From positions 1,434-65,433 of the forward strand of contig JBHJOR010000035.1 in assembly GCA_050329585.1 (NCBI GenBank): a stretch of 64,000 nucleotides of DNA, written 5' to 3'. A program made the translations under genes and the position numbers. The notes beneath the pieces are model-generated. The model ran no database searches. It was not told where the DNA came from and saw nothing but the letters and a program-made list of their open reading frames with translations. This DNA is from Candidatus Methylacidiphilales bacterium. GTDB lineage: Bacteria; Verrucomicrobiota; Verrucomicrobiia; Methylacidiphilales; JBCBYL01. Below are positions 20,996 through 39,149 of this stretch, in pieces (the stretch's first letter is position 1; each line of letters begins with the position of its first letter).

Positions 20996-23900
20996 GTGAA
21001 ACGAGTAATTAACCATCCCGAAGCCGAGCGCAACCTGCAGGGCGGCCGTGTTTATTGGAAAAGCGTGGGTGAATACAGTGACACCCCGGATTTCCAGGAG
21101 TGGCTGCGTCGTGAGTTTCCCCAAGGGGCGGCCGAATTTTGGGGTGATGGGGTATCACGGCGAAATTTTCTTCAACTGATGGGAGCCTCGATGGCGCTGG
21201 CGGGATTGGGCATGACGGGATGTCGTCGTCCTGAATCGCACTTAGTGGCTTACAGTAAAACACCCGAATGGCAGGTGCCGGATCGCTTCGAATATTTTGC
21301 CACCAGCATGCCCACCCGGCGGGGAGCTCACGCGCTTTTGGCCACCAGCTATAACGGCCGACCCATCAAACTGGAAGGGAATCCGGAGCACCCGGTGTTT
21401 CAGGGCACCACCGGAAGTTGGGCTCAGGCATCTTTACTGAATCTATACGACCCCGACCGTTCCAAGCAGTTCCTGCGACAAGGTCAACCGGTGGATCGTG
21501 CCGCCTTGGTGGAACAGATAGCGCAATGGCGTGTGGAATGGGGCATTAATGGAGGAGCAGGTTGGGCTGTTCTTTCCGGGGATTCGGTTTCACCCACCTA
21601 CCAGCGCCTCAAGGACGGACTGGAAGCCCAATACCCCAACATGTTATGGTCCACCTTCGAGCCCGCCTACGCTGCGAATGATTTGGCGGCCTGCGCCAAA
21701 CTCTTTGGTGCCAACACCCGCCAGCGTCCTTTATTGGCAAAAGCCAAAGTCATCCTGAGTTTGGACTCTAATTTTCTTTCCTCATCTCAAGGATCGGTCG
21801 AAGACATTCGTGGGTTTGCGTCGGGCCGGGATGTGGAGAACCTGAATGTCGACATGAACCGCCTTTACGTGGTGGAGCCTCGTTTCACGGTTACGGGTGG
21901 TATGGCGGATCACCGCCTCAGGCTGCCAGCCTCCCGGGTTGGAGCCTTGGCCGCAGCGGTGGCCGCCGAGTTGGGCGTGGCAGGGGTGTCTGCATCTCCG
22001 GTGGAGGGAGTGGATCCTGCATGGATCAAGGAATGCGCCCAAGATCTGCGTTCCCAGTCCGGCCGTGCGTTGGTTTTGGTAGGGGATGAACAACCCCAAG
22101 TTGTTCATGAGCTGGTAGCCGCCATCAATCTGGAGCTCGATGCCTATGGAAAAACCATTGAGGTGATCGATTGGAAGCAAGGGCGTGGCATTGGTCTCGA
22201 TGAGCTGGCTGAAACAATCGAATCGGGATCCATCCGCGGTCTGATTATTTTGAATTCCAACCCGGCTTACGCCGCGCCGGGTGATTTGGAATGGCCGGAA
22301 CTTCAGAAAAAAATCCCCACCGTGGTTCATCTGGGTTATCATGTTGATGAAACGGCTGCGTTGAGCCAATGGCATGTTCCAGCCTCGCATTATCTTGAAT
22401 CTTGGGGAGATGGTGTTTCCTGTGATGGCTCCTATTGTTGCCAGCAGCCTCTTATTCTCCCTTTATTTGATGGAATCAGTGAAATTCAATTTTTGGCCGC
22501 ATGTTTAGGGCAGGAATGGACCGACGGGCCGGATTGGGTGCGTCAAACCTTTGCGCTGGTATCGGGAAGCAGCGAAGATAAGGATTGGAAACGTTTCGTG
22601 CGTGATGGCTTTTTAATAAAGTCCCAAGACGTCAGGAATCAACAGCCTCCCATTCAAGGCAATGCCTCATTGCCTCAAGTGCCGGTCTCGCTTGACAGTC
22701 TGGAAATCGTTTTTGCTGCCGATGAATCCATGGACGATGGCAGCTGGGCCAACAATGGCTGGATGCAGGAACTCCCGGATCCCATCACCAAGATCACGTG
22801 GGATAATGCTGCCCATATCAGTCCCGCCACTGCGGACGCATTGGGTCTTTTTTACAAGACGATCGATGGAGTGGAAACCACCGACGTGATTGAAATTTCA
22901 CTCAACGGCCGACTTATCGAAATACCCATCATCATGGTGCCCGGTCATGCGGATAACACCCTGACACTGCCTTTGGGATATGGGCGGAATTTCGGTGGCC
23001 GGGTGGCCGATGGAGTGGGTGTTAATGTTTATCCGTTCAGAGAGGGCTCGGCCTACTTCATGCATGGTGCCAAGGTTCGCGCGGTGGGCCGTCGGCATCC
23101 GTTTGCTATCACCCAGGAACACTGGAGTATGGAAGGTCGCGGTATCGTCCGGGAATCTCCTATCGAATATCTACGTCAAAATCCCGACACCATCCACCAC
23201 CTCGGATTGGAGAGCCATACGCCGGAAAACCGCAGCTTTTATCCCAACCCGCCATTTGATTACGAAAAACACCATCAATGGGCCATGACCATTGATCTGA
23301 GCACCTGCACCGGCTGTAATGCCTGTGTGTTGGCCTGTCAGGCTGAAAACAACATTCCCATTGTGGGTAAAGACCAGGTGATGAAGGGACGTGAAATGCA
23401 CTGGATCCGCATAGACCGGTATTTCTCGGGAGCTTCGAAATTTAAAACGGATGCCGGTAAAGAAGCCATTCCCAACGAACCGGAAATGGTCATGCAGCCC
23501 ATTCTCTGTCAGCACTGTGAAAACGCGCCCTGTGAGACCGTTTGTCCGGTGAATGCCACCGTGCACAACGAAGAAGGTCTCAACGTCATGGCCTACAACC
23601 GTTGCATTGGCACCCGTTATTGTGCCAACAACTGTCCCTACAAAGTGCGTCGCTTCAACTGGTTTGATTACAATGCCCGGCAACTCGACCAGCTCTATTT
23701 CACCGGCCGTCTCGATAAACTGGGAGTCAAGGGCACTCTCAAACAGCCGCTCGGACCCAAAGGCACCGAGGAACTGATCAAAATGTCCAAGAACCCACAT
23801 GTCACGGTCAGAATGCGCGGCGTGATTGAAAAATGCTCCTTCTGTGTCCAACGCCTCGAAGCCGCAAAAATCGATCACAAAATCCAACCGCAGAACCGCA

Positions 23901-24226
23901 CCACCGGAAACATCAAGCTTCCCACTGACAGTGTCAAAGTAGCCTGTCAGCAGGCATGTCCGGCCCAGGCTATCGTTTTTGGCGATCTATCTGACTCTCA
24001 AAGTAAAGTGAACCGCTTGAGGAAGCGGCAGCAAAGTTATCGTCTCTTAGATTACCTCAACACCCAGCCGCGCGTTACCTATCTGGCTCGCCTGCGTAAT
24101 CCGAATCCTGCCATGCCGGGTGCTGATTTGGTGGGAATGAGCTTGATTCATCTCCAGCACGCGAAACATGGAGGGCATTCCTCCCATCATGAAGAGAAAA
24201 CCCAGCACACTGGAGGGACTTACTGA
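20996..24226 (+). CDS. actB: Alternative complex III subunit ActB (molybdopterin-oxidoreductase-like domain fused to a 4-cluster Fe-S domain)
   Basis: A twin-arginine signal [16 protein letters not shown] is present, along with ferredoxin-type clusters [37 protein letters not shown] and CSFC...CQQACP. The 1076-aa size fits a fused B1/B2 subunit. Confidence 0.9.
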
Positions 24227-25671
24227 TGTCTGACGTCATCGAATCGTTTGCCCCGGCTAAGGGTAATTCACTAGAGCGCCGTCCGCTGGTGCTCAACAAC
24301 CGAAGCCTTTCATGGGTGACCAACCATGTCTCCTCGATGATTGAAGCACCGGTCAACTGGATCTGGCTGCTGCTCACTCTATTCACAGGGATGATTGCCG
24401 CGTTGGTGCCGATCCAACTGGCCTACCAAGTTTCTACAGGCGTGGGTGTCTGGGGGTTGAATAACCCGGTATATTGGGCGTGGGATATCACCAACTTCGT
24501 GTTCTGGATCGGTATCGGTCACGCGGGAACGCTGATTTCCGCCATTCTTTTCCTGACCCGCCAAAATTGGCGCACGTCTATCAACCGGGCGGCTGAGGCC
24601 ATGACCATCTTTGCGGTGATTTGTGCCGGTATTTTTCCCGCCTTCCACGTCGGGCGCGTCTGGTTTGCCTGGTATCTTTTCCCCATCCCAAACTCCAACG
24701 TGATCTGGCAGAACTTCAAAAGTCCGCTTTTGTGGGATGTCTTCGCGGTATCGACCTATTTCACAGTGTCATTGCTATTTTGGTATACCGGGCTGGTGCC
24801 GGACTTGGCCACCATCCGCGACCGGGCGAAAAATAAAATTCGCAAGTGGATCTACGGACTTCTGGCACTGGGTTGGCGCGGCTCCAATCGCCATTGGAGG
24901 CACTATGAAAAAGCGTATCTCATTTTAGCGGGCATCTCTACCCCGCTGGTGCTATCTGTGCACAGTGTGGTGTCTTTTGACTTCGCCACCTCCATTGTGC
25001 CCGGCTGGCATACCACCATCTTTCCTCCTTATTTCGTCGCGGGTGCGGTCTTCGGAGGTTTTGCCATGGTTTTAAGCCTGATGATTCCAGTGCGCGCCAT
25101 CTTCAAGCTGCACGATATGATCACCATCAAGCACATCGACAACATGGCCAAGATCACCCTGCTGACCGGAACCATCGTCGGTTACGCGTATTGTATGGAA
25201 TTCTTCATCGCAGCCTACAGCGGCAACCCGTATGAAGCCTGGGTCTTCATGAACAACCGCCTGAGTCTGCATGCGCCGTATTGGTGGGCGTATTATGCCA
25301 TGTTTGCAGGCAACGTCTTCCTGCCGCAGCTTTTCTGGTTTAAGCGCATCCGGCAAAATGTCGTGGCGGTTTGGTTTATTTGTATGATCGGACCCAACGT
25401 GGGAATGTGGTTTGAGCGTTTTGTTATCATTGTGACCTCCATTAGCCGCGACTTTTTACCCGGTTCGTGGGGGTATTTCACACCTACCTGGAATGATATC
25501 CTGCTGTTTGTCGGCACCATCGGTCTGTTCTTGTTCCTTTTCCTTTTGTTTATTCGTTTCCTGCCAGCTATTACGATGTTTGAAGTGAAGGCCATCATGC
25601 CGCAGGCGGATCCGCATCAAGATCCGGGCGATGAGGACGGCAACCCCAAAGAAGGAGGTTTCCATGCCTGA
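24226..25671 (+). CDS. actC: Alternative complex III quinol-interacting membrane subunit ActC (NrfD/PsrC-like)
   Basis: It is a polytopic membrane protein. Its start overlaps the actB stop (TGATG). Position and NrfD-like hydrophobic pattern support the call. Confidence 0.85.
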
Positions 25672-26221
25672 GAACGGAAAGCTTTTTGCCATGGGTGCTG
25701 AATTTTCCAGTGCCAAAGAACTTTATCACGCCGCTGAAATCGTTCGCGATGCGGGATACAAGCGCTGGGATGTTTATTCTCCCTTCCCTATTCATGGAAT
25801 GGATGATGCGATGGGACTGGGCCCTTCGCGTCTGTCATTTTTCTCCTTGATCGGCGGGATCACCGGACTGCTCTCGGCATTCGCGCTGGTCTATTACACC
25901 AGTTATCTGGATTACCCGTTGGTGGTTCAGGGCAAGCCCTACTTTGCGTTTGAACCCACCTTCCCGGTTTTCTTTGAGTTGACGATTTTATTGACCGCCT
26001 TTGCCACCATCGGAGCGCTGCTGGGTATGAATCTTTTACCGCGACTCAATCATCCCATGTTCAACTGGGATCGTTTTTCACGGGTAACGGATGATGGTTT
26101 TTTCCTAGCGGTAGAGGCGGGTGATCCGCTTTTTTCTGAAAAAGAAACCCGTGCTCTACTGGAGAAAGCCGGTGGGGCGTATATCACGCTGATTCATGAA
26201 GATGCGGAGGAAACGATATGA
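25664..26221 (+). CDS. actD: Alternative complex III subunit ActD
   Basis: ATG at 25664 overlaps the actC stop (ATGCCTGA). The sequence is [47 protein letters not shown] followed by two TM helices, as in ActD/DUF3341. Confidence 0.7.
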
Positions 26222-26823
26222 TGCGGGTGTTTTTCTTCGCGTATCTCATCACCCTGCTTTTGGTGGTGTCGATTTTTGGTTTCCGCGGCCAGATTTCCAA
26301 GCGCACCCCGTTTGAGATTTTTGACGACATGGATCACCAAGCCAAATACAAGTCACAAAGCATTTCCTATCTTTTTGCGGATGGGCGGGCGGATCGCCCC
26401 CCCATTCCCGGCACCATTCCGTTTAATCGGCCCGTTGAGGATGAATATTATTTGACAGGTCAGATGGACGGAAACTGGGGAGCAGGATTTCCGCGGGAGA
26501 TTACGGCCGCAGTGCTGGAGCGGGGCCGGGAACGTTATAACATCAACTGCACCATCTGCCATGGTGAAACGGGAGCGGGCAACGGCATCACCACCCAGTA
26601 TGGCGTGGCGGGCGTGGCTAATTTTCACTCGGATCGTTTCCGCGAAATGCCGGAAGGTCAGATTTATAATACCATCTTGCACGGTAAAGGATTGATGCTG
26701 GGTCTGCCTCACATCCAACCGGACGATGCCTGGGCTATCGTGGCCTACATTAGGGTTCTCCAGCGTTCCAAAAATGCCGCCTTGGCCGATGTGCCCGAGG
26801 AAGAAAAAGAAAAATTGAAATAA
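26218..26823 (+). CDS. actE: Alternative complex III monoheme cytochrome c subunit ActE
   Basis: It has an N-terminal TM anchor, a single CTICHG heme site and a downstream Met-containing region. Its start overlaps the actD stop. Confidence 0.75.
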   Translation: MMRVFFFAYLITLLLVVSIFGFRGQISKRTPFEIFDDMDHQAKYKSQSISYLFADGRADRPPIPGTIPFNRPVEDEYYLTGQMDGNWGAGFPREITAAVLERGRERYNINCTICHGETGAGNGITTQYGVAGVANFHSDRFREMPEGQIYNTILHGKGLMLGLPHIQPDDAWAIVAYIRVLQRSKNAALADVPEEEKEKLK

Positions 26824-26824
26824 C

Positions 26825-28090
26825 ATGAGCGGACATGGACACATCAAACGACCCGACCCGGAACGGTTTAATCTCACCCGTAGTGGTCTGCTACCCTTTC
26901 TTTTGATCGGCGTGGGGATACTGGCCTTGTTGGTTAGTATGCTCGGCTTGGTGTTTAACCCTCTTCGGTTGGGATTTACATGGTTGTGGGCTTACATGTT
27001 TGTTTTTACTCTGGCGGCCGGAACGCTTTTCTGGGTTATCCTGCATCACATCATTAATGCCAACTGGACGACGGTGGTTAGACGCCTGATGGAAAATGTT
27101 TCCTCCATGTTCTGGCCCTGGTTGGTTCTGCTATTCCTGCCGCTGGCATGGTTCCTGACTGATAAACAGTTCTACATGCTGAAGTGGTTTCATGTAGATC
27201 CGGCTGACGATGTCATTCTGCAGGCCAAAACGTGGTTTTTAAATGAGCCGTTTTTCTGGGGTAGACAGGTGGTCTATTTTCTCTTTTTTGGTGGTGCGGC
27301 GTGGCTGATGAGACGTTGGTCGGTCATGCAGGATGATTCCGGAGATGTTAAATTATCACTGAAGCTCAGAAAAGTAGGCAACGCCGCCATGATACTTTTC
27401 GGGCTGGTCATTTCATTCAGTGCCATTGATTGGTTGATGGCACTTAATTACCATTGGTTTTCAACCATGTTCGGCGTTTACATTTTTGCTGGAACGGCCG
27501 GGGCCAGCATGGCCTTTGTGATTCTTCTGGCCAACGGCCTTCACCGGGCCGGTTACCTGCGCCAGGTTTTTACCGTGGAGCATAATCACATCATGGGCAA
27601 ATTACTCTTCGCCTTCACCATTTTCTGGGCCTACATCAGCTTCAGCCAATACATGCTGATTTATTACGCCAATATTCCTGAGGAAACCATTTGGTTCGCG
27701 CATCGCAACGCGGGCTCTTGGGGCATCATCGCCCTGATCCTGGTCTTTGGTCATTTTTTCCTGCCCTTCATTCTCCTGTTGACCCAGCCGGCTAAACGCA
27801 ACCCGCGCCGGTTGTGCACTGCGGCCGGGATCATTCTGTTCATGCACCTGCTGGATTTGTATTGGATCATCATGCCGGAATACCAAATTCGCAAAGCGAT
27901 CAAAGCCGGAGTCAAAAGCGACTATTATGAAGGTCTGCTTTATTTCTCCCCTCACTGGTTGGATTTGAGTGTGTTGGTGGGAATGTTGGCGCTTCTGGCG
28001 GGAATATTCCTATGGCGCAAACTTCCTGCCAGTAATCTCTTCCCGCTCCGCGACCCCCGTTTATATGAATCGGTGACCCTGAAGAATTGA
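26825..28090 (+). CDS. actF: Alternative complex III membrane subunit ActF
   Basis: It is a polytopic membrane protein of 421 aa, immediately after actE and in the ActF position. Confidence 0.7.
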   Translation: MSGHGHIKRPDPERFNLTRSGLLPFLLIGVGILALLVSMLGLVFNPLRLGFTWLWAYMFVFTLAAGTLFWVILHHIINANWTTVVRRLMENVSSMFWPWLVLLFLPLAWFLTDKQFYMLKWFHVDPADDVILQAKTWFLNEPFFWGRQVVYFLFFGGAAWLMRRWSVMQDDSGDVKLSLKLRKVGNAAMILFGLVISFSAIDWLMALNYHWFSTMFGVYIFAGTAGASMAFVILLANGLHRAGYLRQVFTVEHNHIMGKLLFAFTIFWAYISFSQYMLIYYANIPEETIWFAHRNAGSWGIIALILVFGHFFLPFILLLTQPAKRNPRRLCTAAGIILFMHLLDLYWIIMPEYQIRKAIKAGVKSDYYEGLLYFSPHWLDLSVLVGMLALLAGIFLWRKLPASNLFPLRDPRLYESVTLKN

Positions 28091-28093: not shown

Positions 28094-28465
28094 ATGAATT
28101 CGCCTGAAAACAAGCCTGTGATGAGTGTGCGCACTGCGGTAGCGCTGGGTCTGCTGGCCGTCGTCTCATTTGGCGCCGCCACCAAACTTGAAATATGGCG
28201 AACCGACACCCAATCCGTGCAAGCGCAAACAATAGTCAATGAACGTTTGGAAAAACTCCAGCAGACCCGCGAAGGCATGGCCAAGGAGGCTGCTTCCTAT
28301 CGTTGGATCAACAAGGCTGATGGTGTGGTTCAAATCCCGATTCGTCGTGCGATGGAAGTGATCCAACCGGAACTGCAGGCGTCCACCGCACGCCGCAGCA
28401 GCGTTCCGGTGTTACTCCCGGCAGCCGCGCCCGTTGAAGTCCCGGCCATTCAGGAGGGGCAATAG
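28094..28465 (+). CDS. Single-pass membrane protein in the ActG position
   Basis: One TM helix (VRTAVALGLLAVVSFGAA) is followed by a soluble domain. The gene starts 4 nt after the actF stop. I recognise no family. Confidence 0.45.
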   Translation: MNSPENKPVMSVRTAVALGLLAVVSFGAATKLEIWRTDTQSVQAQTIVNERLEKLQQTREGMAKEAASYRWINKADGVVQIPIRRAMEVIQPELQASTARRSSVPVLLPAAAPVEVPAIQEGQ

Positions 28466-28469: not shown

Positions 28470-30137
28470 ATGGAAGCTGCATCGATAACCTCTCTAAAAG
28501 ATAACCCCGCCTCGGCCACCGCCCAGGATGCGGTGCTGCGTGCCCGCGCCGATGCCAGTGTAAGCCGCCCGGTTCTCTTTTTCTTTATTAACAGCCTGCT
28601 GTGGCTGTTTTTTGGCACGTTATTCGGTGCCATGGTATTTTATAAACTCAAGGATCCGACCCACCTGAGCCGGGTGCTGGGATTCTCGCTGGATTTTTTG
28701 CACTATGGACGCATTTATCCGGCCTTTGTGCATATGTGGATTTACGGCTGGTGTTTTCAAGCTTCCTTCGGTGCGGTGCTCTGGCTTTTGGCACGCTTGA
28801 CCCGCTCAGAGCTCAAACAGCCTCTGATGCTTCAGGTTGCGGCCCTGCTGTGGAATCTGGGTGTCACCATGGGAGTCATTTCCATTCTGGCGGGTAATAA
28901 CACCGGGTTTGACTGGCTGGAATTTCCGGCCTTTTCAACTATTCCCATGTTGCTTGCGTTTGCGGGCATTGCGTGGTGTGCGCTGGATCTTTTGCGTCGT
29001 CGTCGTGGTGAAGAAATGTATATATCACTATGGTATGTGGTGGCGGCACTTTTCTGGTTTCCCTCGATTTATTTTGCGGGGAATCTCTTGCTCAACTGGT
29101 TCCCTGTAGGTGGGGTGCTGGGTTCGGTGGTCAATGCCTGGGTCAAACAAGGCATCCTTGGCCTCTGGTTTGTGCCGATTGGACTGTCGTTGGCATATTA
29201 TCTGATTCCGAAAGTGGTGGGGCGTCCTATTCACAGCTATCATCTGGCAGCATTCGGTTTCTGGATGCTGGCGTTAGTCAGTCCGTGGAACTCGGGGGCT
29301 CAGCTCGAAGGGGGGCCGCTTCCCGCTTGGTTGATCACGGTGGGGATCTCCGCCGGCATCTTGATGTTGATTCCCACTTGGGTGGTGGCGTTCAATTTCC
29401 ACAAGACGCTGGAAGGCGACTATGAAAAAGCGGGGCAAAGTCCTACCCTCAAATTCGTGGTGTTCGGGCTGGTAGCTTATGTCTTTGGACAGATTTTTTT
29501 AGCCGTCACCGGGCTGCGTGATGTCAGCTCAATCTCGCAGTTTACTGTTTTTCAATACGGTCAATTCCATCTGATGTTTTATGCTTTTTTCAGTTCGATT
29601 CTTTTTGGTGCCATCTATTTCATCACGCCGCGTTTGGTGGGTTGTGAGTGGGTATCGTCTCGCCTCATCAAGTGGCACTTTCTGCTGACCGCTTACAGTG
29701 TGGCGGTGGTGGTGATGATGTGGTGCGTAAGCGGTTTTTTTCACGGAGCGGCTGTCAATTCCACGCTAACCACGCACCTTACCGGGTATCGTAATGTGGT
29801 CGAAAGCTCCCTTAGTTTGGTGGCGGCGCCATTGCCAATCGTTCTTTTGTTATGGTGTTTAGCTACCTTGGTGATGTTCCTGGTTGGAGTTTGGATCCGC
29901 CGTTTGTTTTACCCGATTCTGACCGTGATTTTGTTTTCTTGGATTGTTTATACGGTGGTGACGCTTTTTGATCTGGTGCCTATGACGGCCCTCTCGGTCA
30001 TGGTGATTCCGGTCTGGGTGCTGGCCTTTGCGCAAATGTTGTTCCTTTTCCACTTTATGATGATGTTGTTCCGTCTTGGAAGGCTCACCGGCGGGCCCAC
30101 ACTTTTAGCAGATCATGAGAATGGGGAGGGGCACTGA
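28470..30137 (+). CDS. CcoN-like (cbb3-type oxidase subunit I homolog) membrane protein lacking the binuclear-centre ligands
   Basis: AGGAGG lies 12 nt upstream of ATG 28470 (the listed ORF starts at 28434). Homology anchors to CcoN are YGRIYP, LAYYLIPKVVGRPIHSYHLAAFGFW and LIPTW. The canonical His/Tyr positions are substituted; see findings. Confidence 0.75.
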   Translation: MEAASITSLKDNPASATAQDAVLRARADASVSRPVLFFFINSLLWLFFGTLFGAMVFYKLKDPTHLSRVLGFSLDFLHYGRIYPAFVHMWIYGWCFQASFGAVLWLLARLTRSELKQPLMLQVAALLWNLGVTMGVISILAGNNTGFDWLEFPAFSTIPMLLAFAGIAWCALDLLRRRRGEEMYISLWYVVAALFWFPSIYFAGNLLLNWFPVGGVLGSVVNAWVKQGILGLWFVPIGLSLAYYLIPKVVGRPIHSYHLAAFGFWMLALVSPWNSGAQLEGGPLPAWLITVGISAGILMLIPTWVVAFNFHKTLEGDYEKAGQSPTLKFVVFGLVAYVFGQIFLAVTGLRDVSSISQFTVFQYGQFHLMFYAFFSSILFGAIYFITPRLVGCEWVSSRLIKWHFLLTAYSVAVVVMMWCVSGFFHGAAVNSTLTTHLTGYRNVVESSLSLVAAPLPIVLLLWCLATLVMFLVGVWIRRLFYPILTVILFSWIVYTVVTLFDLVPMTALSVMVIPVWVLAFAQMLFLFHFMMMLFRLGRLTGGPTLLADHENGEGH

Positions 30138-30138
30138 T

Positions 30139-30879
30139 ATGAACCGCATACAGAATTTATTTCTCGGTGTGTTTATCCTTAGTGCTCTGGCTTGGGCCGG
30201 GCTGATTCTGGTTCCTTACTATCAACTCGGAAAACTCGATGTGGTGGTGGATGAGGAGTCGGGTAAGAGTCTGCCGCAGCTGCCAACCGGATTACAGTTG
30301 CGCGGTCAGGATGTTTATCTGTCTCAAGGTTGTGTCTATTGCCACACCCAGCAGGTTCGGGATACACATCAAGGCGCGGATATCCAGCGTGGCTGGGGTA
30401 ACCGCCGCACCGTGGCGCGGGATTACATTCATGAAACTCCTGCACTGCTCGGCTTTATGCGCCTTGGTCCAGATCTGGCTAATGTCGGCTCTGTTCAGCG
30501 GATGATCACCATCTTGGGTATCGATAAAAAAGAACCCTATAAAAGTATCGACAGCGCAGGAAAAACTTCGTTTCAGGTGGCGATGGAAATTCGTGGTATG
30601 ATCCCTGATGAAGAATGGGATCAACGAGTTGCTGAATACCGGCAGTGGTTGCATGAGCATTTGTATGATCCCCGCAGTTTTAATGATTGGTCGATTATGC
30701 CTGGTTTTGAAGGTTTGTATCAGAAGGTTCCTTTGGTGGGAGTCCCCCACCCTCAAGCGCTTAAAAACGCCCGCGTCGAAAACGGCTTTCAAGTGGTGCC
30801 CACCGCTCGTGCGGAAGCACTGGTCTCTTACCTGATGTCGCTTGACCGCACCTATGCTCTTCCGGAGGCCCAACCATGA
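30139..30879 (+). CDS. CcoO-like monoheme cytochrome c (cbb3 subunit II homolog) with internal insertion
   Basis: ATG 30139 lies 1 nt after the upstream stop. It has an N-terminal TM helix. LQLRGQDVYLSQGCVYCHTQQVRD, MRLGPDLANVG and LYDPRSFNDWSIMPGF align with CcoO signature regions. An extra 50-55 aa or so follows the GPDL motif. Confidence 0.75.
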   Translation: MNRIQNLFLGVFILSALAWAGLILVPYYQLGKLDVVVDEESGKSLPQLPTGLQLRGQDVYLSQGCVYCHTQQVRDTHQGADIQRGWGNRRTVARDYIHETPALLGFMRLGPDLANVGSVQRMITILGIDKKEPYKSIDSAGKTSFQVAMEIRGMIPDEEWDQRVAEYRQWLHEHLYDPRSFNDWSIMPGFEGLYQKVPLVGVPHPQALKNARVENGFQVVPTARAEALVSYLMSLDRTYALPEAQP

Positions 30880-31547
30880 GTGATGATCCCCGTTTCAGTG
30901 AAGATTTGGACTACAGCGAGAAAAACCAAGTCTCGCGTATCCATGAACAAATCCGCCGTGAAGCCTCCGAGCCCGGTCAAGGTGGTGAACCCATTCCACT
31001 TTGGGGAATGCTTTTTATCGGGTTAGTCATCGCTCTGGCTTTCATGTATTTGGGTATGTATAGCGGCGGATTCAAAGGCGATGTCTATGATGGGCGCGCC
31101 GCAGCGGGAGGATCCTCGGCCGCCGGGGCGGCTGCCGCCGTGGAAGAAGACCCTGTGGTGCTTATGGTCAAAGTGGGTAAGCGCATTTATCAGGCCAATT
31201 GCCAAGCTTGCCACATGGCCACTGGAAATGGTGTCGCCGGGCTTAATCCGCCGTTGGCAGGCTCGGAATGGGTTTTAGAAAACGAGGAGCGGCTGGTTGC
31301 CTTGATATTGGGAGGACTTCAAGGTCCTATCGTGGTCAAAGGCAATACCTACAATAACGTCATGGTCGGGTGGAAACAGACTCTCAACGATAAACAAATC
31401 GCCTCGGTCACTACATACATTCGTCAAGAGTGGGGCAATACGGCAGCTCCGATAACCGAAGATACGGTGGCCAAAGTCCGTTCCGCTCATGGAGATCGTA
31501 GCGAAGCGTGGACTGCAGATGATCTCATCAAAGTTTTCGGGCAGTAA
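30876..31547 (+). CDS. Membrane-anchored monoheme class I cytochrome c
   Basis: It has one TM helix (LWGMLFIGLVIALAFMYLGMY), an Ala/Gly-rich linker, a CQACH heme site and a distal Met region (NNVMVGW). Its start overlaps the upstream stop. Confidence 0.75.
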   Translation: MSDDPRFSEDLDYSEKNQVSRIHEQIRREASEPGQGGEPIPLWGMLFIGLVIALAFMYLGMYSGGFKGDVYDGRAAAGGSSAAGAAAAVEEDPVVLMVKVGKRIYQANCQACHMATGNGVAGLNPPLAGSEWVLENEERLVALILGGLQGPIVVKGNTYNNVMVGWKQTLNDKQIASVTTYIRQEWGNTAAPITEDTVAKVRSAHGDRSEAWTADDLIKVFGQ

Positions 31548-31644: not shown

Positions 31645-33525
31645 ATGCAAGATTCCACACTAAGCCACGACTCCGGGCACGACGTTCATCACGATCACGA
31701 GGTGCAGTCCTTTTGGTCCAAATACGTTTTTTCTACGGATCATAAAGTCATCGGAATCCAATACGCTATCACCTCCATGCTTTCGTTGTTGGGCGGATTC
31801 ATGATGATGATTTTAATGCGCTGGCAGCTCGCTTACCCTGGGGAGGCTATTCCACTTGTTGGCAACCTCTTGGAAAACATTGTCGGAAAAGAAATGATGG
31901 CCGATGGGGTGATGCAGGCGCAGTTTTATAATTCGTTGGGTGCGATGCATGGCACGGTGATGATATTCCTAGGAGTGGTGCCGCTGGGATTTGCGGCTTT
32001 TGGTAACTACGTGATGCCGCTGCAAGTGGGTGCGCCTGACATGGCATTTCCGCGATTAAACATGGCAAGTTACTGGACTTTTCTTCCCGGTGCCTTGATC
32101 ATGTTTTTGAGTTTCTTTGTTCCCGGAGGAGCTGCCAAGTCGGGCTGGACCTCGTATTCACCACTGGCAACGGTAGCGGATCCCCCGCAGGCACCTACAA
32201 TTGAATTCTTTTCCGGACTCGGCTTAGGTCCTGACTTGGCTCTCTTCATGGCATCACTCTTTAATGGCCAGTCATTGTGGTTGATCGCTATGATCTTCTT
32301 AATTACTTCTTCGCTTTTAGGATCCGTCAACGTGATTGTTACCGTCATCCAATTACGCGCTCGCGGCATGGAGTGGATGCGGATGCCTTATTTCGTATGG
32401 GTTACGCTCGTTACCGCATTTCTTCTACTGTTGGCATTCCCACCTCTTGAAGCAGCAGGCATCATGCAGTTGATGGATCGGGTGGCATTCACCTCCTTCT
32501 TTATGCCCTCCGGTTTGTATGTGGGCGGTGAAACACTGAACAGCTATGCAGGTGGTGGCAGCCCTCTACTCTGGCAACACCTCTTCTGGTTTCTAGGTCA
32601 CCCTGAAGTCTATATTATGTTGCTGCCATCGATCGGTATTGTAGCCGAAATTATTGCCTGTAACACGCGCAAGCCTCTATGGGGCTACAGATCACTGGTG
32701 GTGGCACTGATTGTGCTTGGCGGGTTGTCTTTCATCGTTTGGGCTCACCACATGTATATGACCGGCATGGGCAGTAAGGTCAGTGCCTTCTTCCAAACCA
32801 CCACCACCATCATCTCCATTCCTTCGGTCATCATCCTGTCAGCGCTCTTAATTTCACTTTGGGGCGGCTCCATCCGGTTTAACACACCCATGTTGTTCGC
32901 CACCGCGTTTTTGCCTATGTTCGGCATCGGGGGTCTGACCGGAATTCCATTGGCTTTCAACAGTCTGGGACTCTACCTGCACGATACCTACTACGTGATC
33001 GGCCACTTTCACTATGTGGTGGCGCCGGGTGTGATGTTTGGTTTATTTGCCGGCATTTATCATTGGTATCCCAAAGCCACCGGACGAATGATGAATGAGA
33101 CGTTAGGGAAGCTCCATTTTTGGCCCACGCTGATCTGCATGAACTTGATTTTCGGCCCTATGTTCATCCAAGGCATGGCTGGAATGCACCGCCGTTGGTA
33201 TGACGGTGGTGCCAGCTATGAATTGGCTGCGCCTGTCCTTCACTGGAACGTGGTGATGACCATTGCTGCGTTTGTTATGCTCGTAGCACAGTTTCCATTT
33301 ATCTGGAACTTCTTCACGGCTTGGAAATGGGGCCGCCCCGCCGGACTGAATCCTTGGCAGGCGACCACGCTGGATTGGCAGACGCCCTTCCCCGTTCCGC
33401 ATGGAAACTTTGATAAACCTGTGGTCGTGTATCGCGGCCCTTATGAATACAGTGTCCCCGGTCATGAAACAGATTTCACGCCACAGAACCAACCCGATCC
33501 CGTAAAGACCACCACCCCAGTCTGA
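31645..33525 (+). CDS. ctaD: A-type heme-copper oxidase subunit I
   Basis: The motifs GAMHGTVMIF, GAPDMAFPRLN, WFLGHPEVYI, WAHHMYMTG and HDTYYVIGHFHYVV are present, so all six canonical His, the D-pathway Asp/Asn and the HPEVY Glu/Tyr are there. The 626-aa protein carries insertions and a C-terminal tail. Confidence 0.95.
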   Translation: MQDSTLSHDSGHDVHHDHEVQSFWSKYVFSTDHKVIGIQYAITSMLSLLGGFMMMILMRWQLAYPGEAIPLVGNLLENIVGKEMMADGVMQAQFYNSLGAMHGTVMIFLGVVPLGFAAFGNYVMPLQVGAPDMAFPRLNMASYWTFLPGALIMFLSFFVPGGAAKSGWTSYSPLATVADPPQAPTIEFFSGLGLGPDLALFMASLFNGQSLWLIAMIFLITSSLLGSVNVIVTVIQLRARGMEWMRMPYFVWVTLVTAFLLLLAFPPLEAAGIMQLMDRVAFTSFFMPSGLYVGGETLNSYAGGGSPLLWQHLFWFLGHPEVYIMLLPSIGIVAEIIACNTRKPLWGYRSLVVALIVLGGLSFIVWAHHMYMTGMGSKVSAFFQTTTTIISIPSVIILSALLISLWGGSIRFNTPMLFATAFLPMFGIGGLTGIPLAFNSLGLYLHDTYYVIGHFHYVVAPGVMFGLFAGIYHWYPKATGRMMNETLGKLHFWPTLICMNLIFGPMFIQGMAGMHRRWYDGGASYELAAPVLHWNVVMTIAAFVMLVAQFPFIWNFFTAWKWGRPAGLNPWQATTLDWQTPFPVPHGNFDKPVVVYRGPYEYSVPGHETDFTPQNQPDPVKTTTPV

Positions 33526-33541: not shown

Positions 33542-34486
33542 ATGCAAATCCCTTACGAAGTCCAAGAACGCCCGGATACGGGTCTTTATAACGCCAAGCT
33601 GGGCATTTGGTTGTTCCTCGCCTCGGAAGTCATGCTTTTTGGCGGACTCTTTTCTGCATACATCTTCCTTCGTCTGGGTGCACCTGACGGAACGTGGCCC
33701 GACCATGTTTTGTGGTATTTGCCTGGCTTGATCAACACCGGAGTCTTGATTCTATCCAGCGTCACGGTGGTGCTGTCCTGGCTCTATGTGAAGATAGGCG
33801 ATTTCAAAATGTTCAGGATCTGTATGATCGTTACGCTGATCTGTTCAGTTTTGTTCATGGGGATCAAGTCATTCGAATACAACGGTAAGTTCCATCACTT
33901 CGGCGCGTTCATGAAAGACGACGCGCGGCCTAACGGTTACAGCGAGCAAATCACCGGACACCTTATCGAAGAAACAGACACCTATTTTCTGGTTGCCGCT
34001 GACACTCGTCAGCCGTCGGATTGGATCAGCTCACGGGCGCCGAAGGTTGAAAAAGACAGCAGCGGGGACGAATTAGCAAAAATCGGAGACGATCCCCACC
34101 AAGGGCCTTCCTTCCAACATCCCGGTATCATAGCCACCGGAAAAATGAAGCCGGTCAAAACCATTGAGGGCAAGGTCAAGGCAGCACTGGGGGAAGACCA
34201 TGCTGAGCACCCGGTCTTCAAGGTGATGAAAGATCAGGTTTTCCGCAGTTCCATGTTTACCCCCGCCTACAATTCTTACTTCTCTATTTATTTTACGATG
34301 ACCGGTCTTCACGCCCTGCACGTTATTGGCGGGGCACTGGTGCTGGCCTATTTCTGTTTCCCGGGAAGCAAAATGTTTTTCACAGACCGTCAACATTTTG
34401 CGAACCGCATCGAAGTAGCGGGGCTATTCTGGCACTTCGTAGATTTGGTCTGGATCTTCCTTTTCCCCATTCTCTACTTGCTTTGA
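33542..34486 (+). CDS. ctaE: Cytochrome c oxidase subunit III with a large hydrophilic insertion
   Basis: N-terminal region LGIWLFLASEVMLFGGLFSAYIF, FSIYFTMTGLHALHVIGG and C-terminal region GLFWHFVDLVWIFLFPILY fit subunit III. A hydrophilic segment of roughly 115-125 aa lies between GIKSFEYNGK and the TGLHALH helix. Confidence 0.85.
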   Translation: MQIPYEVQERPDTGLYNAKLGIWLFLASEVMLFGGLFSAYIFLRLGAPDGTWPDHVLWYLPGLINTGVLILSSVTVVLSWLYVKIGDFKMFRICMIVTLICSVLFMGIKSFEYNGKFHHFGAFMKDDARPNGYSEQITGHLIEETDTYFLVAADTRQPSDWISSRAPKVEKDSSGDELAKIGDDPHQGPSFQHPGIIATGKMKPVKTIEGKVKAALGEDHAEHPVFKVMKDQVFRSSMFTPAYNSYFSIYFTMTGLHALHVIGGALVLAYFCFPGSKMFFTDRQHFANRIEVAGLFWHFVDLVWIFLFPILYLL

Positions 34487-34519: not shown

Positions 34520-34876
34520 ATGAGTGAAAAAACCTTACATACCGGAGAAACCCATGATCATGGCGATCATGAAGTGGAACATCTTAAGCAACATATCAAG
34601 TTCTATTGGATAATTTTTGCAGCGTTGATCGTTGGCACCATCCTCACCGTGGGAGTTCCGATGGTATTTCACTTTGAAAATCACGCCATCAACGTATTGA
34701 TTGGAATGGCTATTGCCACAGTCAAAGCGGCACTGGTCTGTTTGTTTTTTATGCACTTATCAAATGAAAAACGCACCATTTACGTCATGATCGCGTTCGC
34801 CGTCGTCTTCGTGATAGCACTATTTGTTCTGACAGCCCTTGCGTATTGGAACCACACGCATAATCTTATCTGGTAG
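34520..34876 (+). CDS. ctaF: Prokaryotic cytochrome c oxidase subunit IV family protein
   Basis: The pattern HIKFYWIIFAALIVGTILTV...ATVKAALVCLFFMHL, three TM helices and the position after ctaE support the call. Confidence 0.7.
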   Translation: MSEKTLHTGETHDHGDHEVEHLKQHIKFYWIIFAALIVGTILTVGVPMVFHFENHAINVLIGMAIATVKAALVCLFFMHLSNEKRTIYVMIAFAVVFVIALFVLTALAYWNHTHNLIW

Positions 34877-35398: not shown

Positions 35399-36223
35399 AT
35401 GCTAAACGATCTTCTTCAGTATACCCAAAATGCCTCGGAACACGGGACACAGGTCGACTTCTTTCTGGAAGCCGCTCACTGGTTCATGCTGATTCTCTTT
35501 GTGGGATGGTCCTTGTTTTTTTTCTATACGCTCTATCGTTTCTGGCAGAAGCGGCAGCCAAAAGCTCAATACGCAGGTCTGAAGTCCCACGTCTCCTCTC
35601 ACGCCGAGATTGGGGTCATCATTGTGGAAGCCGTGTTGCTTTTGGGTTTCGCGTTTCCGCTATGGGCTAAGCAGGTCAATCAATTTCCACCGGAAGGCGA
35701 TAACGTGGTGCGTGTTCATGCGGTGGCTGAACAATTTGGATGGACTTTTCACTATCCGGGTCCAGATGGTGTTTTTGGTTCCAAACGAGCGACCTTCATC
35801 AAAGCTGACAGCCCTCGTAGTATGATTGGCTTGGATCCAAACGATCCCCATGGTTTGGATGATGTGGTTTCGAGAACCTACATGAAAATTCCGGTGGATC
35901 GCCCGGTCATCATCGATATCACTTCCAAAGACGTGATTCACAACTATGCGATTGCTCACATGAGGGTCAGCCAAGATGCTATTCCCGGGATGAGCATTCC
36001 TATCTGGTATACGCCGGTGCGGACGGGGGAATTTGAAATCATCTGCGGGCAGCTTTGCGGGGCCGGACACTTTTCCATGAAGGGTATATTGGAAGTGTTA
36101 AGTGAAGAAGATTATCAGAAGTGGTATTCCAGTCAGGTTCCCAAGACAGAAAATGCTCCTGTAGCTCCGCAAGAAGAGACGCAGGCAGATGCTCCCTCTG
36201 CTTTGGCTTCATCCAACCCATAA
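35399..36223 (+). CDS. ctaC: Cytochrome c oxidase subunit II (CuA domain, no fused cytochrome c)
   Basis: Two N-terminal TM helices are present. The CuA ligand pattern is DVIHNY...CGQLCGAGHFSM (H...CxxxCxxxHxxM). Confidence 0.9.
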   Translation: MLNDLLQYTQNASEHGTQVDFFLEAAHWFMLILFVGWSLFFFYTLYRFWQKRQPKAQYAGLKSHVSSHAEIGVIIVEAVLLLGFAFPLWAKQVNQFPPEGDNVVRVHAVAEQFGWTFHYPGPDGVFGSKRATFIKADSPRSMIGLDPNDPHGLDDVVSRTYMKIPVDRPVIIDITSKDVIHNYAIAHMRVSQDAIPGMSIPIWYTPVRTGEFEIICGQLCGAGHFSMKGILEVLSEEDYQKWYSSQVPKTENAPVAPQEETQADAPSALASSNP

Positions 36224-36337: not shown

Positions 36338-37414
36338 ATGGTTTGTTCCATCCCTTCTAGAACGCGCATTCAACTGATTTGGTTGGACGCCGTATTGATA
36401 CTGATTGCGATCATGGTAATCATCGGCGGCACCACGCGACTAACCGGCTCGGGGCTTTCCATGACGGACTGGAAACTTATTGGCGAAATGATTCCTCCAT
36501 TGAATGAAGCAGCTTGGGAAGAAAAATTCAGGCTTTATCAGGGCACTCCACAGCATGTCATCGTCAATGCCCACATGACGGTTGAAGAGTTCAAAGGAAT
36601 TTTCTGGTGGGAATACATTCACCGGATGTGGGGACGTTTATTGGGGTTAGCCTTTGGAATTCCGTTCGCCTATTTTGCTTTGGCGGGCTGGCTGGACAAG
36701 CGTCGCATCAAGCTGATGTTCATTGCATTGTTATTGGGAGCAGCTCAAGGGCTTTGGGGATGGTTTATGGTGCAGAGCGGGCTGGTGGATCGTCCCTGGG
36801 TGAGTCCGGTGCGCCTGACCGGTCACTTATTACTGGCTCTCTTTCTATTTGGATTTGTGTGGTGGAATCGATTGGAAATACAGGCTTTGTCGAAACCTAC
36901 AGATGTGGGAGTGCGTCCTTTATGGCCACAAGGCATACCGCGGTGGGCGGGTTGGATCGTGTTGGCGTTGGTCATACAATTTGCTTTGGGTGGAGTGATG
37001 GCGGGACTACGAGCTGCCATGGACTATCCAACGTATCCCACCATGAACGGTCAGTGGATTCCTGCCGGCCTCTGGAAACCTGAAATGGGCTGGCATAATC
37101 TGGTGGAGAACAGCGCATGGGTGCATTTTCTCCACCGGGGCTGGGGATTGATCGTCCTGTTGGGCGTCACGGCATGGGCATGGTTTTGTGGTCGTAGATT
37201 GCCCCTTGCCCTTGCCCGGATGTATGGGCTACTGGCGGCTGCAACATGGGTGCAGTTTGCTTTGGGAGTGGTCACCGTTCTGAGTTCCCGAGGCAGTATT
37301 CCCGTGAGCTGGGGAGTCATGCATCAATTCGGATCGGTGGTGCTGACCTTACTGATGGTGATGATATGGTTTTACGAACGTAAGGGTGTAGTGAATAGTC
37401 ACCAAGTCTCATGA
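36338..37414 (+). CDS. ctaA: Heme A synthase (COX15/CtaA family)
   Basis: The sequence GGTTRLTGSGLSMTDWKLIGEMIPPLNEAAWEEKFRLYQ, HR motifs (EYIHRMWGR, HFLHRGWG) and about 8 TM helices fit the family. Confidence 0.85.
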   Translation: MVCSIPSRTRIQLIWLDAVLILIAIMVIIGGTTRLTGSGLSMTDWKLIGEMIPPLNEAAWEEKFRLYQGTPQHVIVNAHMTVEEFKGIFWWEYIHRMWGRLLGLAFGIPFAYFALAGWLDKRRIKLMFIALLLGAAQGLWGWFMVQSGLVDRPWVSPVRLTGHLLLALFLFGFVWWNRLEIQALSKPTDVGVRPLWPQGIPRWAGWIVLALVIQFALGGVMAGLRAAMDYPTYPTMNGQWIPAGLWKPEMGWHNLVENSAWVHFLHRGWGLIVLLGVTAWAWFCGRRLPLALARMYGLLAAATWVQFALGVVTVLSSRGSIPVSWGVMHQFGSVVLTLLMVMIWFYERKGVVNSHQVS

Positions 37415-37977
37415 ATCTCAACCCAATCACTTCCCTATTGAGTGCACTTCCAATGCTATTGATCGTGACCGGCTGTCAGGAGGCACCGGTGAGTGTCATC
37501 ATGCCAGCTGGGCAGGCTGGCGCACTTCTTCCCCAGACGTTTGAAAACGATAAGGTGAACGTGGAGCTTCCCGCCGAATGGATTCCCGAGCCGGTTTTCG
37601 GAATGCGTGAGGCCAGTTTCCGCATACCCGGTCCAAAGGGTACCGAGGCGGAGGTTTCCATCAGCACGCTTCCTTTATCAGGCGGCACGTTGGCTTCCAA
37701 TCTATTGCGCTGGAGGAGCCAAGCCGGACACCCTTCAGTAGATGAGGCAACCTGCCTGAAAGAAACACGCCCCGGTCAGGTTAGCGGACACAAAGCGGTA
37801 TTGGTGCAGTGGGATGCTTATACGGATCAACATCCGGCCGTGTATGGCGCGGTGTTGGAATCCGGCGACACACGTTATTTTATCAAGTTCTCCGGCCCGG
37901 GCGCATGGGTTAAAGAACAAGCGGCCGCATGGGATCAATTTCTTCAATCTCTAGTATTGAAAGAACTGAAGTCATGA
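37411..37977 (+). CDS. Hypothetical lipoprotein, translationally coupled between ctaA and ccsB
   Basis: The leader carries a lipobox-like LIVTGC. ATGA overlaps occur at both ends (37411-37414 and 37974-37977). I recognise no family. Confidence 0.55.
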   Translation: MNLNPITSLLSALPMLLIVTGCQEAPVSVIMPAGQAGALLPQTFENDKVNVELPAEWIPEPVFGMREASFRIPGPKGTEAEVSISTLPLSGGTLASNLLRWRSQAGHPSVDEATCLKETRPGQVSGHKAVLVQWDAYTDQHPAVYGAVLESGDTRYFIKFSGPGAWVKEQAAAWDQFLQSLVLKELKS

Positions 37978-39149
37978 AGACGTTTTCGTGGTGGATAACC
38001 CGTCTAGTGGATATTTTGAGTTCGTTGAAACTCACGGTGGCCTGTCTGTCGGTCTCCATGGTATTGGTGTTTGTCTCGACCTTAGCGCAAGTGGAGTTGG
38101 GAATATACGAAGCTCAAGCCAGATATTTTGAGACGTGGTGGGTTTGGGCGGAACTTGGCGACGGGGGAATCCAGGTTCCATGGTTGCCGGGTGGTTATTG
38201 GATTGGATTGTTGTTGATCGCCAACTTGGTTACTGCGCACTGGAAGCGTTTCCGCCTTCAGTGGAACAAGGCGGGATTGTGGATGGTTCACTTGGGTATT
38301 TTGATTTTACTGGTGGGCGGTTTTGTAACGCATTGGATGGCACACGAGGGACAGTTGCGTTTTGATGAGGGAGAAAAGAAACACTATTACGAAAGTTTTC
38401 TAGAGCGTGAATTGGTGGTCACCGAGCGATTGGCGGAAGCTCAGGTCAGAGAAGTGCGTTTTGATACCTCGATGATCCGGAAAGAAAATCAAGTTTCCCA
38501 CCCGGACCTTCCTTTCACCTTGAACCTTACCCATTATTTGGGGAACAGCAGACTGACTTTGAAGCCGGTAATGGCATCCCCCTCCCCTTCTGCGGGAGAA
38601 GTAAACCGGGGCTGGGGGCAGTTGATCCGCGCAGAGGAAGTTCCTCCCACCTACAAGCCGGATGAACAAAATCTCATCTCAGTCCGGTTGACGCCGGTTT
38701 GGAATGATCAAGCCTTGGGAACATGGTTGGTCACCAATGCAGTTGGCGATATCCAATGGTTTCGCGTGGAAGATCGGCAATTTGGGCTTTCTCTAAGGCG
38801 AAAGCGGTTTGATCTGCCCTACGCGATGACCTTGATTCAGTTCACCCATGATCGTTACCCGGGAACTAACATTCCCAAAAACTTTTCCAGCCGGGTTTTA
38901 TTGGAGCATCCCGAATTTAATGAAGAACGTGAAACACTCATCTATATGAATCAACCTTTGCGTTATCGTGGCAAAACATTTTATCAAGCCGGTTTTGATA
39001 ACAACGATACGACTTCAATTTTACAAGTAGTGGAGAATCCCGGCTGGTTGTTACCCTATGTCTCCTGCTTGTTGGTGAGTTTGGGGCTCACGTGGCATTT
39101 CCTGATGCATCTCTCCAGGCACTTGAACCGAAGAAGGGAAGCACTGTGA
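37974..39149 (+). CDS. ccsB: System II cytochrome c biogenesis protein CcsB/ResB-like
   Basis: The N-terminal region LSSLKLTVACLSVSMVLVFVSTLAQ and the C-terminal region NIPKNFSSRVLL...LIYMNQPLRYRGKTFYQAGFD fit ResB. The start is taken at the Met overlapping the upstream stop. Confidence 0.8.
   Translation: MKTFSWWITRLVDILSSLKLTVACLSVSMVLVFVSTLAQVELGIYEAQARYFETWWVWAELGDGGIQVPWLPGGYWIGLLLIANLVTAHWKRFRLQWNKAGLWMVHLGILILLVGGFVTHWMAHEGQLRFDEGEKKHYYESFLERELVVTERLAEAQVREVRFDTSMIRKENQVSHPDLPFTLNLTHYLGNSRLTLKPVMASPSPSAGEVNRGWGQLIRAEEVPPTYKPDEQNLISVRLTPVWNDQALGTWLVTNAVGDIQWFRVEDRQFGLSLRRKRFDLPYAMTLIQFTHDRYPGTNIPKNFSSRVLLEHPEFNEERETLIYMNQPLRYRGKTFYQAGFDNNDTTSILQVVENPGWLLPYVSCLLVSLGLTWHFLMHLSRHLNRRREAL

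Follow-up and report, generated by a model that had tools for sequence, protein, structure and literature searches.

A CcoN homolog without binuclear-centre ligands, encoded between alternative complex III and an aa3 oxidase in a Candidatus Methylacidiphilales bacterium

Introduction

The heme-copper oxidase (HCO) superfamily is defined by six histidines. Here, we analyzed a gene for a CcoN-like protein of 555 amino acids (aa), located at 28470..30137 on the forward strand of a 64,000-nucleotide (nt) stretch of DNA from Candidatus Methylacidiphilales bacterium (assembly GCA_050329585.1, contig JBHJOR010000035.1, positions 1,434-65,433 of the forward strand). This whole stretch is hereafter called the window. 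The protein is a homolog of subunit I of cbb3-type (C-family) oxidases with no histidine at any CuB or heme b3 ligand position, and its gene lies between those for alternative complex III (ACIII) and those for an aa3 oxidase.

An ACIII-aa3 supercomplex of Flavobacterium johnsoniae was reportedly described by Sun et al. in 2018, and we know of no solved ACIII structure that contains an HCO-fold subunit. The supercomplexes of Rhodothermus marinus (ACIII-caa3) and F. johnsoniae need an extra cytochrome c domain as a bridge, which is fused to oxidase subunit II in R. marinus and to ActA in F. johnsoniae; in R. marinus, the domain on subunit II of caa3 receives its electrons from ActE (PMC5928083). 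Electrons that leave the ActA/ActE hemes in either system have to cross one further c-heme before they reach CuA. The window resembles them in that ACIII is encoded beside an A-family oxidase, but it carries neither fusion; a three-protein cbb3-derived module is encoded between the two.

The cbb3 oxidase of Pseudomonas stutzeri (PDB 3MK7/5DJQ) is the best sequence match and shares with the module the subunit I fold (TM-score 0.90), the gene order N-O-(P) and a CcoO partner with a transmembrane anchor, a CXXCH motif and a Met ligand. In contrast to this enzyme, the window protein is without the ligands for CuB and heme b3 and the cross-link residue, its heme b pair is broken and its calcium-site Glu is replaced. 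It also has extra C-terminal helices, its CcoO partner carries a 46-aa insertion, and in place of the diheme CcoP the third subunit is a c552-like cytochrome with a single heme. In the bc1-cbb3 supercomplexes of Rhodobacter capsulatus (6XKW) and P. aeruginosa (8SMR), cytochrome cy and CcoP shuttle electrons between the quinol oxidoreductase and the oxidase, and they share with the third subunit of the window a transmembrane-tethered cytochrome c domain on a flexible linker. These complexes differ in having bc1 instead of ACIII and an active oxidase core, and the sequence similarity is weak (E 1e-4 to 1e-7).

A replaced active-site histidine is also found in the gNOR family, in which one His is changed to Asp and catalysis is proposed to persist (PMC11214002). 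This family is related to the B family and not to the C family, whereas in the window protein all active-site histidines are replaced. A 2024 survey reported complete conservation of the active-site histidines in all HCO families except gNOR (PMC11214002). No description of a ligand-less CcoN was found in the literature searched, which did not extend to subscription papers, so that an earlier mention is possible.

A C-type oxidase next to ACIII was noted by Refojo et al. (2010), as cited in PMC8498564, and the ACIII-adjacent genes of Opitutaceae and verrucomicrobial methanotrophs have been described as a cbb3-type oxidase (PMC8498564, PMC6688271, 10.1101/2024.01.15.574570). For cultured Methylacidiphilum, genes for ACIII, a cbb3 oxidase and an aa3 oxidase are reported to lie next to one another. 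We found intact ACIII-cbb3 operons in Opitutaceae IMCC26134 (locus L036), Nibricoccus (L075), Terrimicrobiaceae and Chthoniobacter flavus (L068). They have the same actABCDEF genes as the window, followed by a small transmembrane gene in some loci, ccoN, ccoO and a gene for a monoheme cytochrome c. Their CcoN proteins are about 40% identical to the window protein and keep H60, H207, Y251, H257, H258, H345 and H347 (P. stutzeri numbering), and the ligand-less clade branches from within them.

Results

Ligand residues and fold of the CcoN-like protein

The CcoN-like protein matched the Pfam COX1 profile with 146 bits (cut-off 34.8) and TIGR00780 with 106.5 bits, which is below the equivalog cut-off of 583.15. 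The top five PDB sequence matches (phmmer) were all CcoN, with an E-value of 1.9e-24 for 3mk7_A. An AlphaFold model built on 89 homologs reached a predicted local distance difference test score (pLDDT) of 89.1 and a predicted template-modelling score of 0.87. Its top seven Foldseek matches were again all CcoN (TM-score 0.85-0.90; 3mk7_A, E 1.8e-19, TM-score 0.90) and outranked ba3, NorB and aa3 (NorB, TM-score 0.80, E 4e-10). The model consists of the HCO core of 12 transmembrane helices and extra C-terminal helices at residues 441-533. The original prediction, made by eye from the sequence, had called the product a CcoN homolog and had proposed structure prediction as a check; the Pfam match, the PDB matches and the fold all agree with that assignment.

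The ligand positions were read from a HMMER alignment to P. stutzeri 3mk7_A and from two MAFFT alignments of the window protein, one with 120 homologs (121 sequences) and one with 198 homologs (199 sequences). In the HMMER alignment, the CuB ligands H207, H257 and H258 are replaced by Q227, A277 and Q278, the proximal heme b3 ligand H345 by Q365, and the cross-linked Y251 by S271. The heme b column H60 is occupied by F86, with a histidine two residues further on (H88), and H347 corresponds to H367. Both MAFFT alignments gave identical ligand columns, and the motifs were free of gaps. The motif around H207 could be followed through intermediates from WWYGHNAVG over WWYAHNTLG and WWYANNLLF to AWVKQGILG. 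An alignment artefact was ruled out by the gap-free motifs and by the bridging intact relatives of ~40% identity. The by-eye alignment of the original prediction was therefore right at every ligand column, including the two-residue shift of the His60 region, and the protein was indeed found to have no HH dipeptide. Its statement that H367 is the only retained ligand holds for the window protein itself; in the window's clade, this residue is Asn in 11 of the 12 members, and H88 is invariant.

Residues in contact with the cofactors were also changed, namely R57 to Tyr, W203 to Ala and the calcium-site residue E122 to Asp. In the window's clade, Leu replaces G324 and Met replaces G349, both of them invariant glycines among the intact relatives; these exchanges are consistent with a filled heme cleft in these proteins. 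No histidine stands at the metal positions by which a NorB would be recognized. The protein is thus a CcoN homolog in which none of the cofactor-based marks of membership was found, and it should not be filed as an oxidase. We take it to be without CuB and heme b3 and, to judge from the residues at the heme b positions, almost certainly without heme b as well in the window's clade.

One could suppose that the protein is a redox enzyme with unconventional ligation, for example with a single heme b held by H88 and H367 and fed by the heme of the CcoO-like partner. H88 is invariant in the clade, H367 is present in the window protein, and relatives of the Udaeobacter type keep H60, H347 and both flanking arginines. 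We regard this as very unlikely, as H367 has given way to Asn in nearly the whole clade, H88 lies two residues off the heme b ligand position, and the Met at G349, present in all clade members, would fill the heme cleft. Chemistry with O2 or NO is excluded, as no histidine is found at any CuB or heme b3 position.

Extent and descent of the ligand-less family

A scan with one genome per GTDB species gave at least 597 matches, and the best 80 of these, on which the following type counts are based, were essentially all from Verrucomicrobiota. In 22 of the 80 loci the CcoN is intact, 2 are without the Tyr only, and 56 are without the binuclear centre. In a survey of 1.84 billion 50%-identity protein representatives, 309 proteins matched at E<=1e-30; among the best 150 of these clusters, which were scored, about 5 were intact and about 145 were not.

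In a neighbour-joining tree computed after removal of the ligand and cofactor columns, the ligand-less sequences formed a single clade in 99 of 100 bootstraps, nested in a grade of intact verrucomicrobial CcoN. This topology favours a single ancient loss of the binuclear centre, with long-branch attraction possible. One protein, P0090 (QEDHHHH), looks like a separate, partial loss. To judge from the phylogeny, the family goes back to a genuine cbb3 oxidase linked to ACIII, which is still extant in Opitutaceae, Terrimicrobiaceae and Chthoniobacter; the Opitutaceae loci L016, L036 and L075 are intact.

The residues at the former ligand positions differ widely among subclades, and we rejected a new metal site on this ground. 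Position 258 is often Arg or Lys and is Gln in the window's clade; the Arg or Lys may stand in for the charge of CuB. The ortholog survey suggested in the original prediction thus confirmed that the loss of ligands and the position next to ACIII are conserved, while the particular substitutions vary by subclade. The loss is also graded. Udaeobacter-type proteins have Asn, Gln, Arg or Tyr at the CuB and heme b3 positions and keep R55, R57, H60 and H347, that is, the heme b site, and may be single-heme cytochrome b proteins. The window's clade has additionally lost the heme b pair. Loci in the intermediate state occur among L002-L080 in Udaeobacter/Chthoniobacterales (e.g., L006, 10001-11281).

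Two further loci (L003, 10001-11272; L012, 9607-10821) encode a CcoN with all six histidines and Ser at the column of the cross-linked Tyr. There were no ACIII genes in the upstream sequence of L012, and only an ActA-like match just upstream in L003. These proteins may represent a second paralog in which the Tyr has moved or the activity has changed.

Selection and conservation

The ratio of nonsynonymous to synonymous substitution rates (dN/dS) was determined from the two closest available pairs inside the window's fully ligand-less clade, for which dS was 1.2-1.7, high but finite; the pair of the window and L087 was dS-saturated. For the CcoN-like gene, the two independent pairs gave 0.071 and 0.070, compared with 0.03-0.07 for ActE/ActF, 0.08-0.10 for the CcoO-like gene, 0.07-0.09 for the cytochrome c gene and 0.027 for CoxA. 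The gene is therefore under purifying selection. Among 49 intact verrucomicrobial CcoN, 154 alignment columns, counting gap columns, reached a conservation of at least 90%. In 95 of these, the same residue is kept at 80% or more in 142 ligand-less sequences. The columns that lost conservation are linked to the cofactors: R57, H60, N62, the calcium-site E122, W203, H207, N208, T215, S240 (Ala in 94%), Y251, H257, H258, H337, H345, H347 and G349.

A decaying remnant of a lost cbb3 oxidase might be expected from the missing catalytic residues, whose replacements differ among clades. This pseudogene reading is refuted by the data on selection and conservation and retains practically no probability. 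Its reading frame is unbroken, with translational coupling, and dN/dS stays near 0.07. The family covers hundreds of species and some 145 different non-intact clusters at 50% identity, and most of the conserved columns are still conserved. The original prediction had likewise judged the gene to be conserved rather than pseudogenising.

The cytoplasmic-face motifs PK..GRP..SY..L and PR..G.EW are nearly invariant in the ligand-less forms. Moreover, the ligand-less clade shares Y409 and H528 at 92% or more, where the intact relatives have Ile and Leu. H528 sits in the last helix, before the conserved tail LRLGR..GGPTL. Neither the motif invariance nor the two residues are explained by a periplasmic relay, and a conduit or another new function is therefore possible. 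Such a neo-functionalised membrane protein might conduct protons or ions, provide a quinone site or act as a sensor coupled to ACIII turnover, and the c-hemes would then be secondary. The equivalents of Y223, Y224, S236, Y237, N289 and T293 at the cytoplasmic end, which we take to be proton-pathway residues of cbb3, stay 89-99% conserved. Proton pumping by ACIII itself is debated (PMC8498564). Nevertheless, the upper pathway is lost, with S240 mostly changed to Ala and T215 and Y251 gone, the former metal-site residues vary among subclades without a common new site, and only two residues were gained. We consider this explanation rather improbable.

Operon structure and synteny

The window contains the complete core set of ACIII, all six subunits ActABCDEF, in one cluster on the forward strand, as are all genes of the window described in this section. 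ActA (20303..20959; Pfam Cytochrome_C7/CIII) is a pentaheme cytochrome c. Its five CXXCH motifs leave no sixth cytochrome c domain by motif count. ActB (20996..24226), the Fe-S subunit with Pfam Fer4 dicluster domains, is 42-49% identical to the proteins at the ActB position across the 80 loci. It is followed by ActC (24226..25671; Pfam NrfD), an NrfD-like quinol-binding membrane subunit, ActD (25631..26221; Pfam PF11821, 198 bits), the monoheme cytochrome c ActE (26218..26823; Pfam PF13442, one CXXCH) and ActF (26825..28090; PDB 6f0k_F, E 5e-68), the second NrfD-like membrane subunit. A gene for a small protein of 123 aa with a single transmembrane helix (28094..28465), homologs of which occur in about 50 loci, precedes the CcoN-like gene. 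The latter is followed by genes for the CcoO-like protein (30139..30879) and a membrane-tethered monoheme cytochrome c at the CcoP position (30876..31547).

The genes are tightly coupled, as the original prediction had noted. The CcoN-like open reading frame (ORF) starts with ATG at 28470, with AGGAGGGG upstream at 28452-28459, and stops with TGA at 30135-30137, leaving a 1-nt gap to the ATG at 30139. The CcoO-like and cytochrome c genes overlap by the 4 nt ATGA at 30876-30879. In a scan for promoters and terminators, no signal rose above chance, and no terminator separated the cytochrome c gene from coxA.

The A-family oxidase begins with CoxA (31645..33525; Pfam COX1, 439 bits), an intact subunit I with all A-family motifs (WFLGHPEVY, HH at 368 and HFH at 454). 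It is followed by CoxC, subunit III (33542..34486; Pfam COX3), CoxD, subunit IV (34520..34876; TIGR02229, 60.8 bits, above the cut-off), and CoxB, the CuA subunit II (35399..36223; Pfam COX2, TIGR02866). The CuA site of CoxB is CGQLCGAGHFSM, and a CXXCH count revealed neither a heme motif nor a fused cytochrome c domain in this protein.

Synteny was counted by tblastn of the window proteins against the 80 loci, with denominators that vary by feature. ActF is directly upstream in 47 of 47 ligand-less loci and in 15 of 16 intact ones, and ActA-F are all upstream in 34/34 and 11/12 loci, respectively. The CcoO-like and cytochrome c genes are downstream in 50 of 51 ligand-less and 17 of 17 intact loci. 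Intact CcoN occupies the same operon slot in 22 of the 80 loci. The linkage to ACIII is thus strict, and the conserved unit is ActABCDEF plus four genes, for the small transmembrane protein, the CcoN-like protein, the CcoO-like protein and the tethered cytochrome c. The two-gene pair of the original prediction has to be enlarged by 28094-28465 and 30876-31547.

The link to aa3 is looser. A window-type CoxA (at least 55% identity) was found within 10 kb in 18 of 33 ligand-less loci and in none of 11 intact loci, a contrast that is phylogenetically non-independent. In the closest relatives (L081-L087), the gene order is that of the window: ACIII, small transmembrane gene, N-like, O-like and cytochrome c genes, CoxA/C/D, two small ORFs, CoxB, CtaA, a 190-aa ORF, ResB and CcsA. 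In distant ligand-less clades, the operon stops after the cytochrome c gene, and unrelated genes come next. Hence, the description of the pair as wedged between ACIII and aa3 is true for the window's lineage but not for others, as no aa3 oxidase is nearby in 15 of the 33 loci. The fixed partner is ACIII and not the aa3 oxidase, which is adjacent in some lineages only.

These data also bear on the possibility that the four genes encode a generic output or assembly module, in which the CcoN-like protein is a structural subunit of ACIII and the c-hemes feed any acceptor, such as soluble cytochromes, other oxidases, NirK or NosZ. The invariant neighbour would fit this explanation, and so would the short operons of the distant clades. 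The tethered cytochrome is as similar to NirK-fused donors as it is to c552, and a nos cluster lies inside the ACIII cluster of Methylacidiphilum (10.1101/2024.01.15.574570). On the other hand, a closely related aa3 oxidase with no cytochrome c domain of its own lies downstream in the window's clade and in the 18 ligand-less loci mentioned above, and the explanation differs from the aa3-directed one that we prefer (see below) in the identity of the acceptor only. We hold it to be a serious but clearly less probable alternative.

The small transmembrane protein has a periplasmic motif, Y.W.DK.KG..RIPI.RAMEL, and a Pro/Ala-rich tail, and gave no match in Pfam, NCBIfam or PDB. Its gene sits between actF and the CcoN or CcoN-like gene in intact and ligand-less loci alike (e.g., L006 and L054). 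It may be an undescribed accessory subunit of ACIII or cbb3. In six loci (L014, L023, L033, L059, L068 and L072), the intact ccoNO and cytochrome c genes are directly followed by a different CoxB-CoxA pair. These Terrimicrobiaceae/Chthoniobacter proteins are 30-34% and 43-47% identical to the aa3 subunits of the window and, by these identities, belong to another type of oxidase.

CcoO-like and tethered cytochromes

The CcoO-like protein matched Pfam FixO with 64.3 bits (cut-off 29.6), CcoO entries of the PDB, and TIGR00781 with 53.8 bits, below the cut-off of 200.65. It has an N-terminal transmembrane anchor and CVYCH at residue 65, and its SIMP aligns to the SKMP motif of P. stutzeri CcoO, which holds the Met ligand. 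These two motifs had been correctly read in the original prediction; the insertion estimated there at 50-55 aa measures 46 aa and follows GPDLANVGS. A single-sequence AlphaFold run gave a pLDDT of 38.8 for this protein.

CXXCH is kept in every CcoO-like protein of the loci, and MP is found at the position of the Met ligand in all complete ligand-less ones. From CXXCH to the Met, the distance is almost always 76-77 residues in intact loci, compared with 89-342 in the ligand-less ones, where insertions range from 12 to about 265 aa. CcoO of the intact loci, with 204-236 aa, has no insertion. The insertion sites differ among the ligand-less clades: in the L088-L090 clade (L088, 11431-12417; L089, 11494-12393; L090, 11479-12408), the insertion follows CH.QVR. 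From this, we conclude that the periplasmic part was elaborated after the loss of catalysis, at least twice.

The tethered cytochrome (Pfam PF00034/PF13442) consists of a transmembrane helix, an Ala/Gly-rich linker and one c552-like cytochrome c domain. Among PDB entries, this domain best matched NirK-fused cytochromes (E 1e-20) and Thermus c552 (1e-14), which are donors to copper centres, and its similarity to CcoP is far weaker, at the E-values given in the Introduction. By their motifs, both c-type heme partners stay redox-competent.

Proposed role of the ligand-less CcoN

Taking the above results together, we propose, as somewhat better than an even bet, that the CcoN-like protein is a non-catalytic descendant of cbb3 subunit I that serves as a scaffold for two c-hemes between ACIII and aa3. 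The original prediction had offered three guesses. The one that best agrees with our data, as we infer, is a scaffold or electron-relay subunit of an ACIII-oxidase supercomplex; the other two, a proton or ion conduit and a sensor, are less probable. The ancestor would have been a cbb3 oxidase linked to ACIII, with its genes in the actABCDEF operon. Its binuclear centre would have been lost once, anciently, with the 12-helix protein retained. The dead core would then act as a membrane platform that holds two subunits beside ACIII, the CcoO-like one with its heme c and the c552-like tethered cytochrome. The two c-hemes would accept electrons from the heme wire of ActA/ActE and pass them to CuA in the intact aa3 oxidase, the genes of which lie downstream. 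The module may thus be a fossil of an ACIII-cbb3 supercomplex. Because neither the ActA nor the CoxB fusion is present here, the bridging c-heme must come in trans, and the CcoO-like and tethered cytochromes are the obvious candidates.

Several observations weigh against this proposal. The association with ACIII and the transfer of electrons are deduced from genetic linkage. ActE is dispensable for electron flow to aa3 in F. johnsoniae (PMC8552683), and ACIII may need no extra relay. Many ligand-less loci, including those of the distant clades, have no nearby aa3, and the acceptor may therefore not be specific to aa3; the contrast in CoxA frequency loses weight through shared ancestry. The nearly invariant cytoplasmic-face motifs are explained neither by a pure scaffold nor by a periplasmic relay, and a pure scaffold does not account for the conservation of Y409 and H528 in the ligand-less clade alone. 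Finally, sequence cannot prove the absence of heme, and Udaeobacter-type members keep both heme b histidines.

If the scaffold proposal is true, a large, selected clade without the histidines would be the first pseudo-enzyme of the HCO superfamily, and the 12-helix core would have a use other than catalysis. It would also represent a third, unstudied way of passing ACIII electrons to an oxidase. The intact forms, the Udaeobacter type with heme b ligands only and the window type with no conserved cofactor ligands would form a natural series for the study of supercomplex evolution. In its broadest form, which we consider evenly balanced between right and wrong, ligand-less CcoN would be the first family of cofactor-less, non-catalytic HCO subunit I and an integral ACIII output arm of a ~10-subunit complex in much of Verrucomicrobiota, including the abundant soil genus Udaeobacter, and the cbb3 annotation and the high-affinity respiration inferred from it would be wrong there.

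In the annotations of NCBI and JGI, these proteins are labelled 'cbb3-type cytochrome c oxidase subunit I'. Judged by the ligand residues, this label is right for Opitutaceae and wrong for many others, among them Udaeobacter and the lineage of the window. Further homolog searches yielded no sequence named as Methylacidiphilum. Where the ACIII-linked copy is the only cbb3 gene, high-affinity, microaerobic respiration may thus have been claimed too readily from verrucomicrobial genomes.

Other features of the window

Downstream of coxB, biogenesis genes for the heme a synthase CtaA, a 188-aa lipoprotein-like ORF and the cytochrome c maturation proteins ResB and CcsA occupy 36338..41008 of the forward strand, as assigned by Pfam and by the gene order in L081, L082, L086 and L087. 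The lipoprotein-like ORF (37411-37977) has a signal ending in LIVTGC, lies between ctaA and resB in all close relatives and gave no Pfam match. Two small ORFs of ~70 and 80-116 aa between coxD and coxB are conserved in the window's clade (window, 34839-35395; L081, 12597-13158; L082, 10238-10737; L087, 10093-10571), and they likewise had no match in Pfam.

At 1150-8493 on the minus strand, the window carries a bacterial microcompartment locus of the Planctomycetes/Verrucomicrobia type, a known kind of system. It encodes three EutN/CcmL vertex proteins, three BMC-H shell proteins, a class II aldolase, an aldehyde dehydrogenase, PduL (PTAC), acetate kinase and an Ldh/Mdh-like dehydrogenase.

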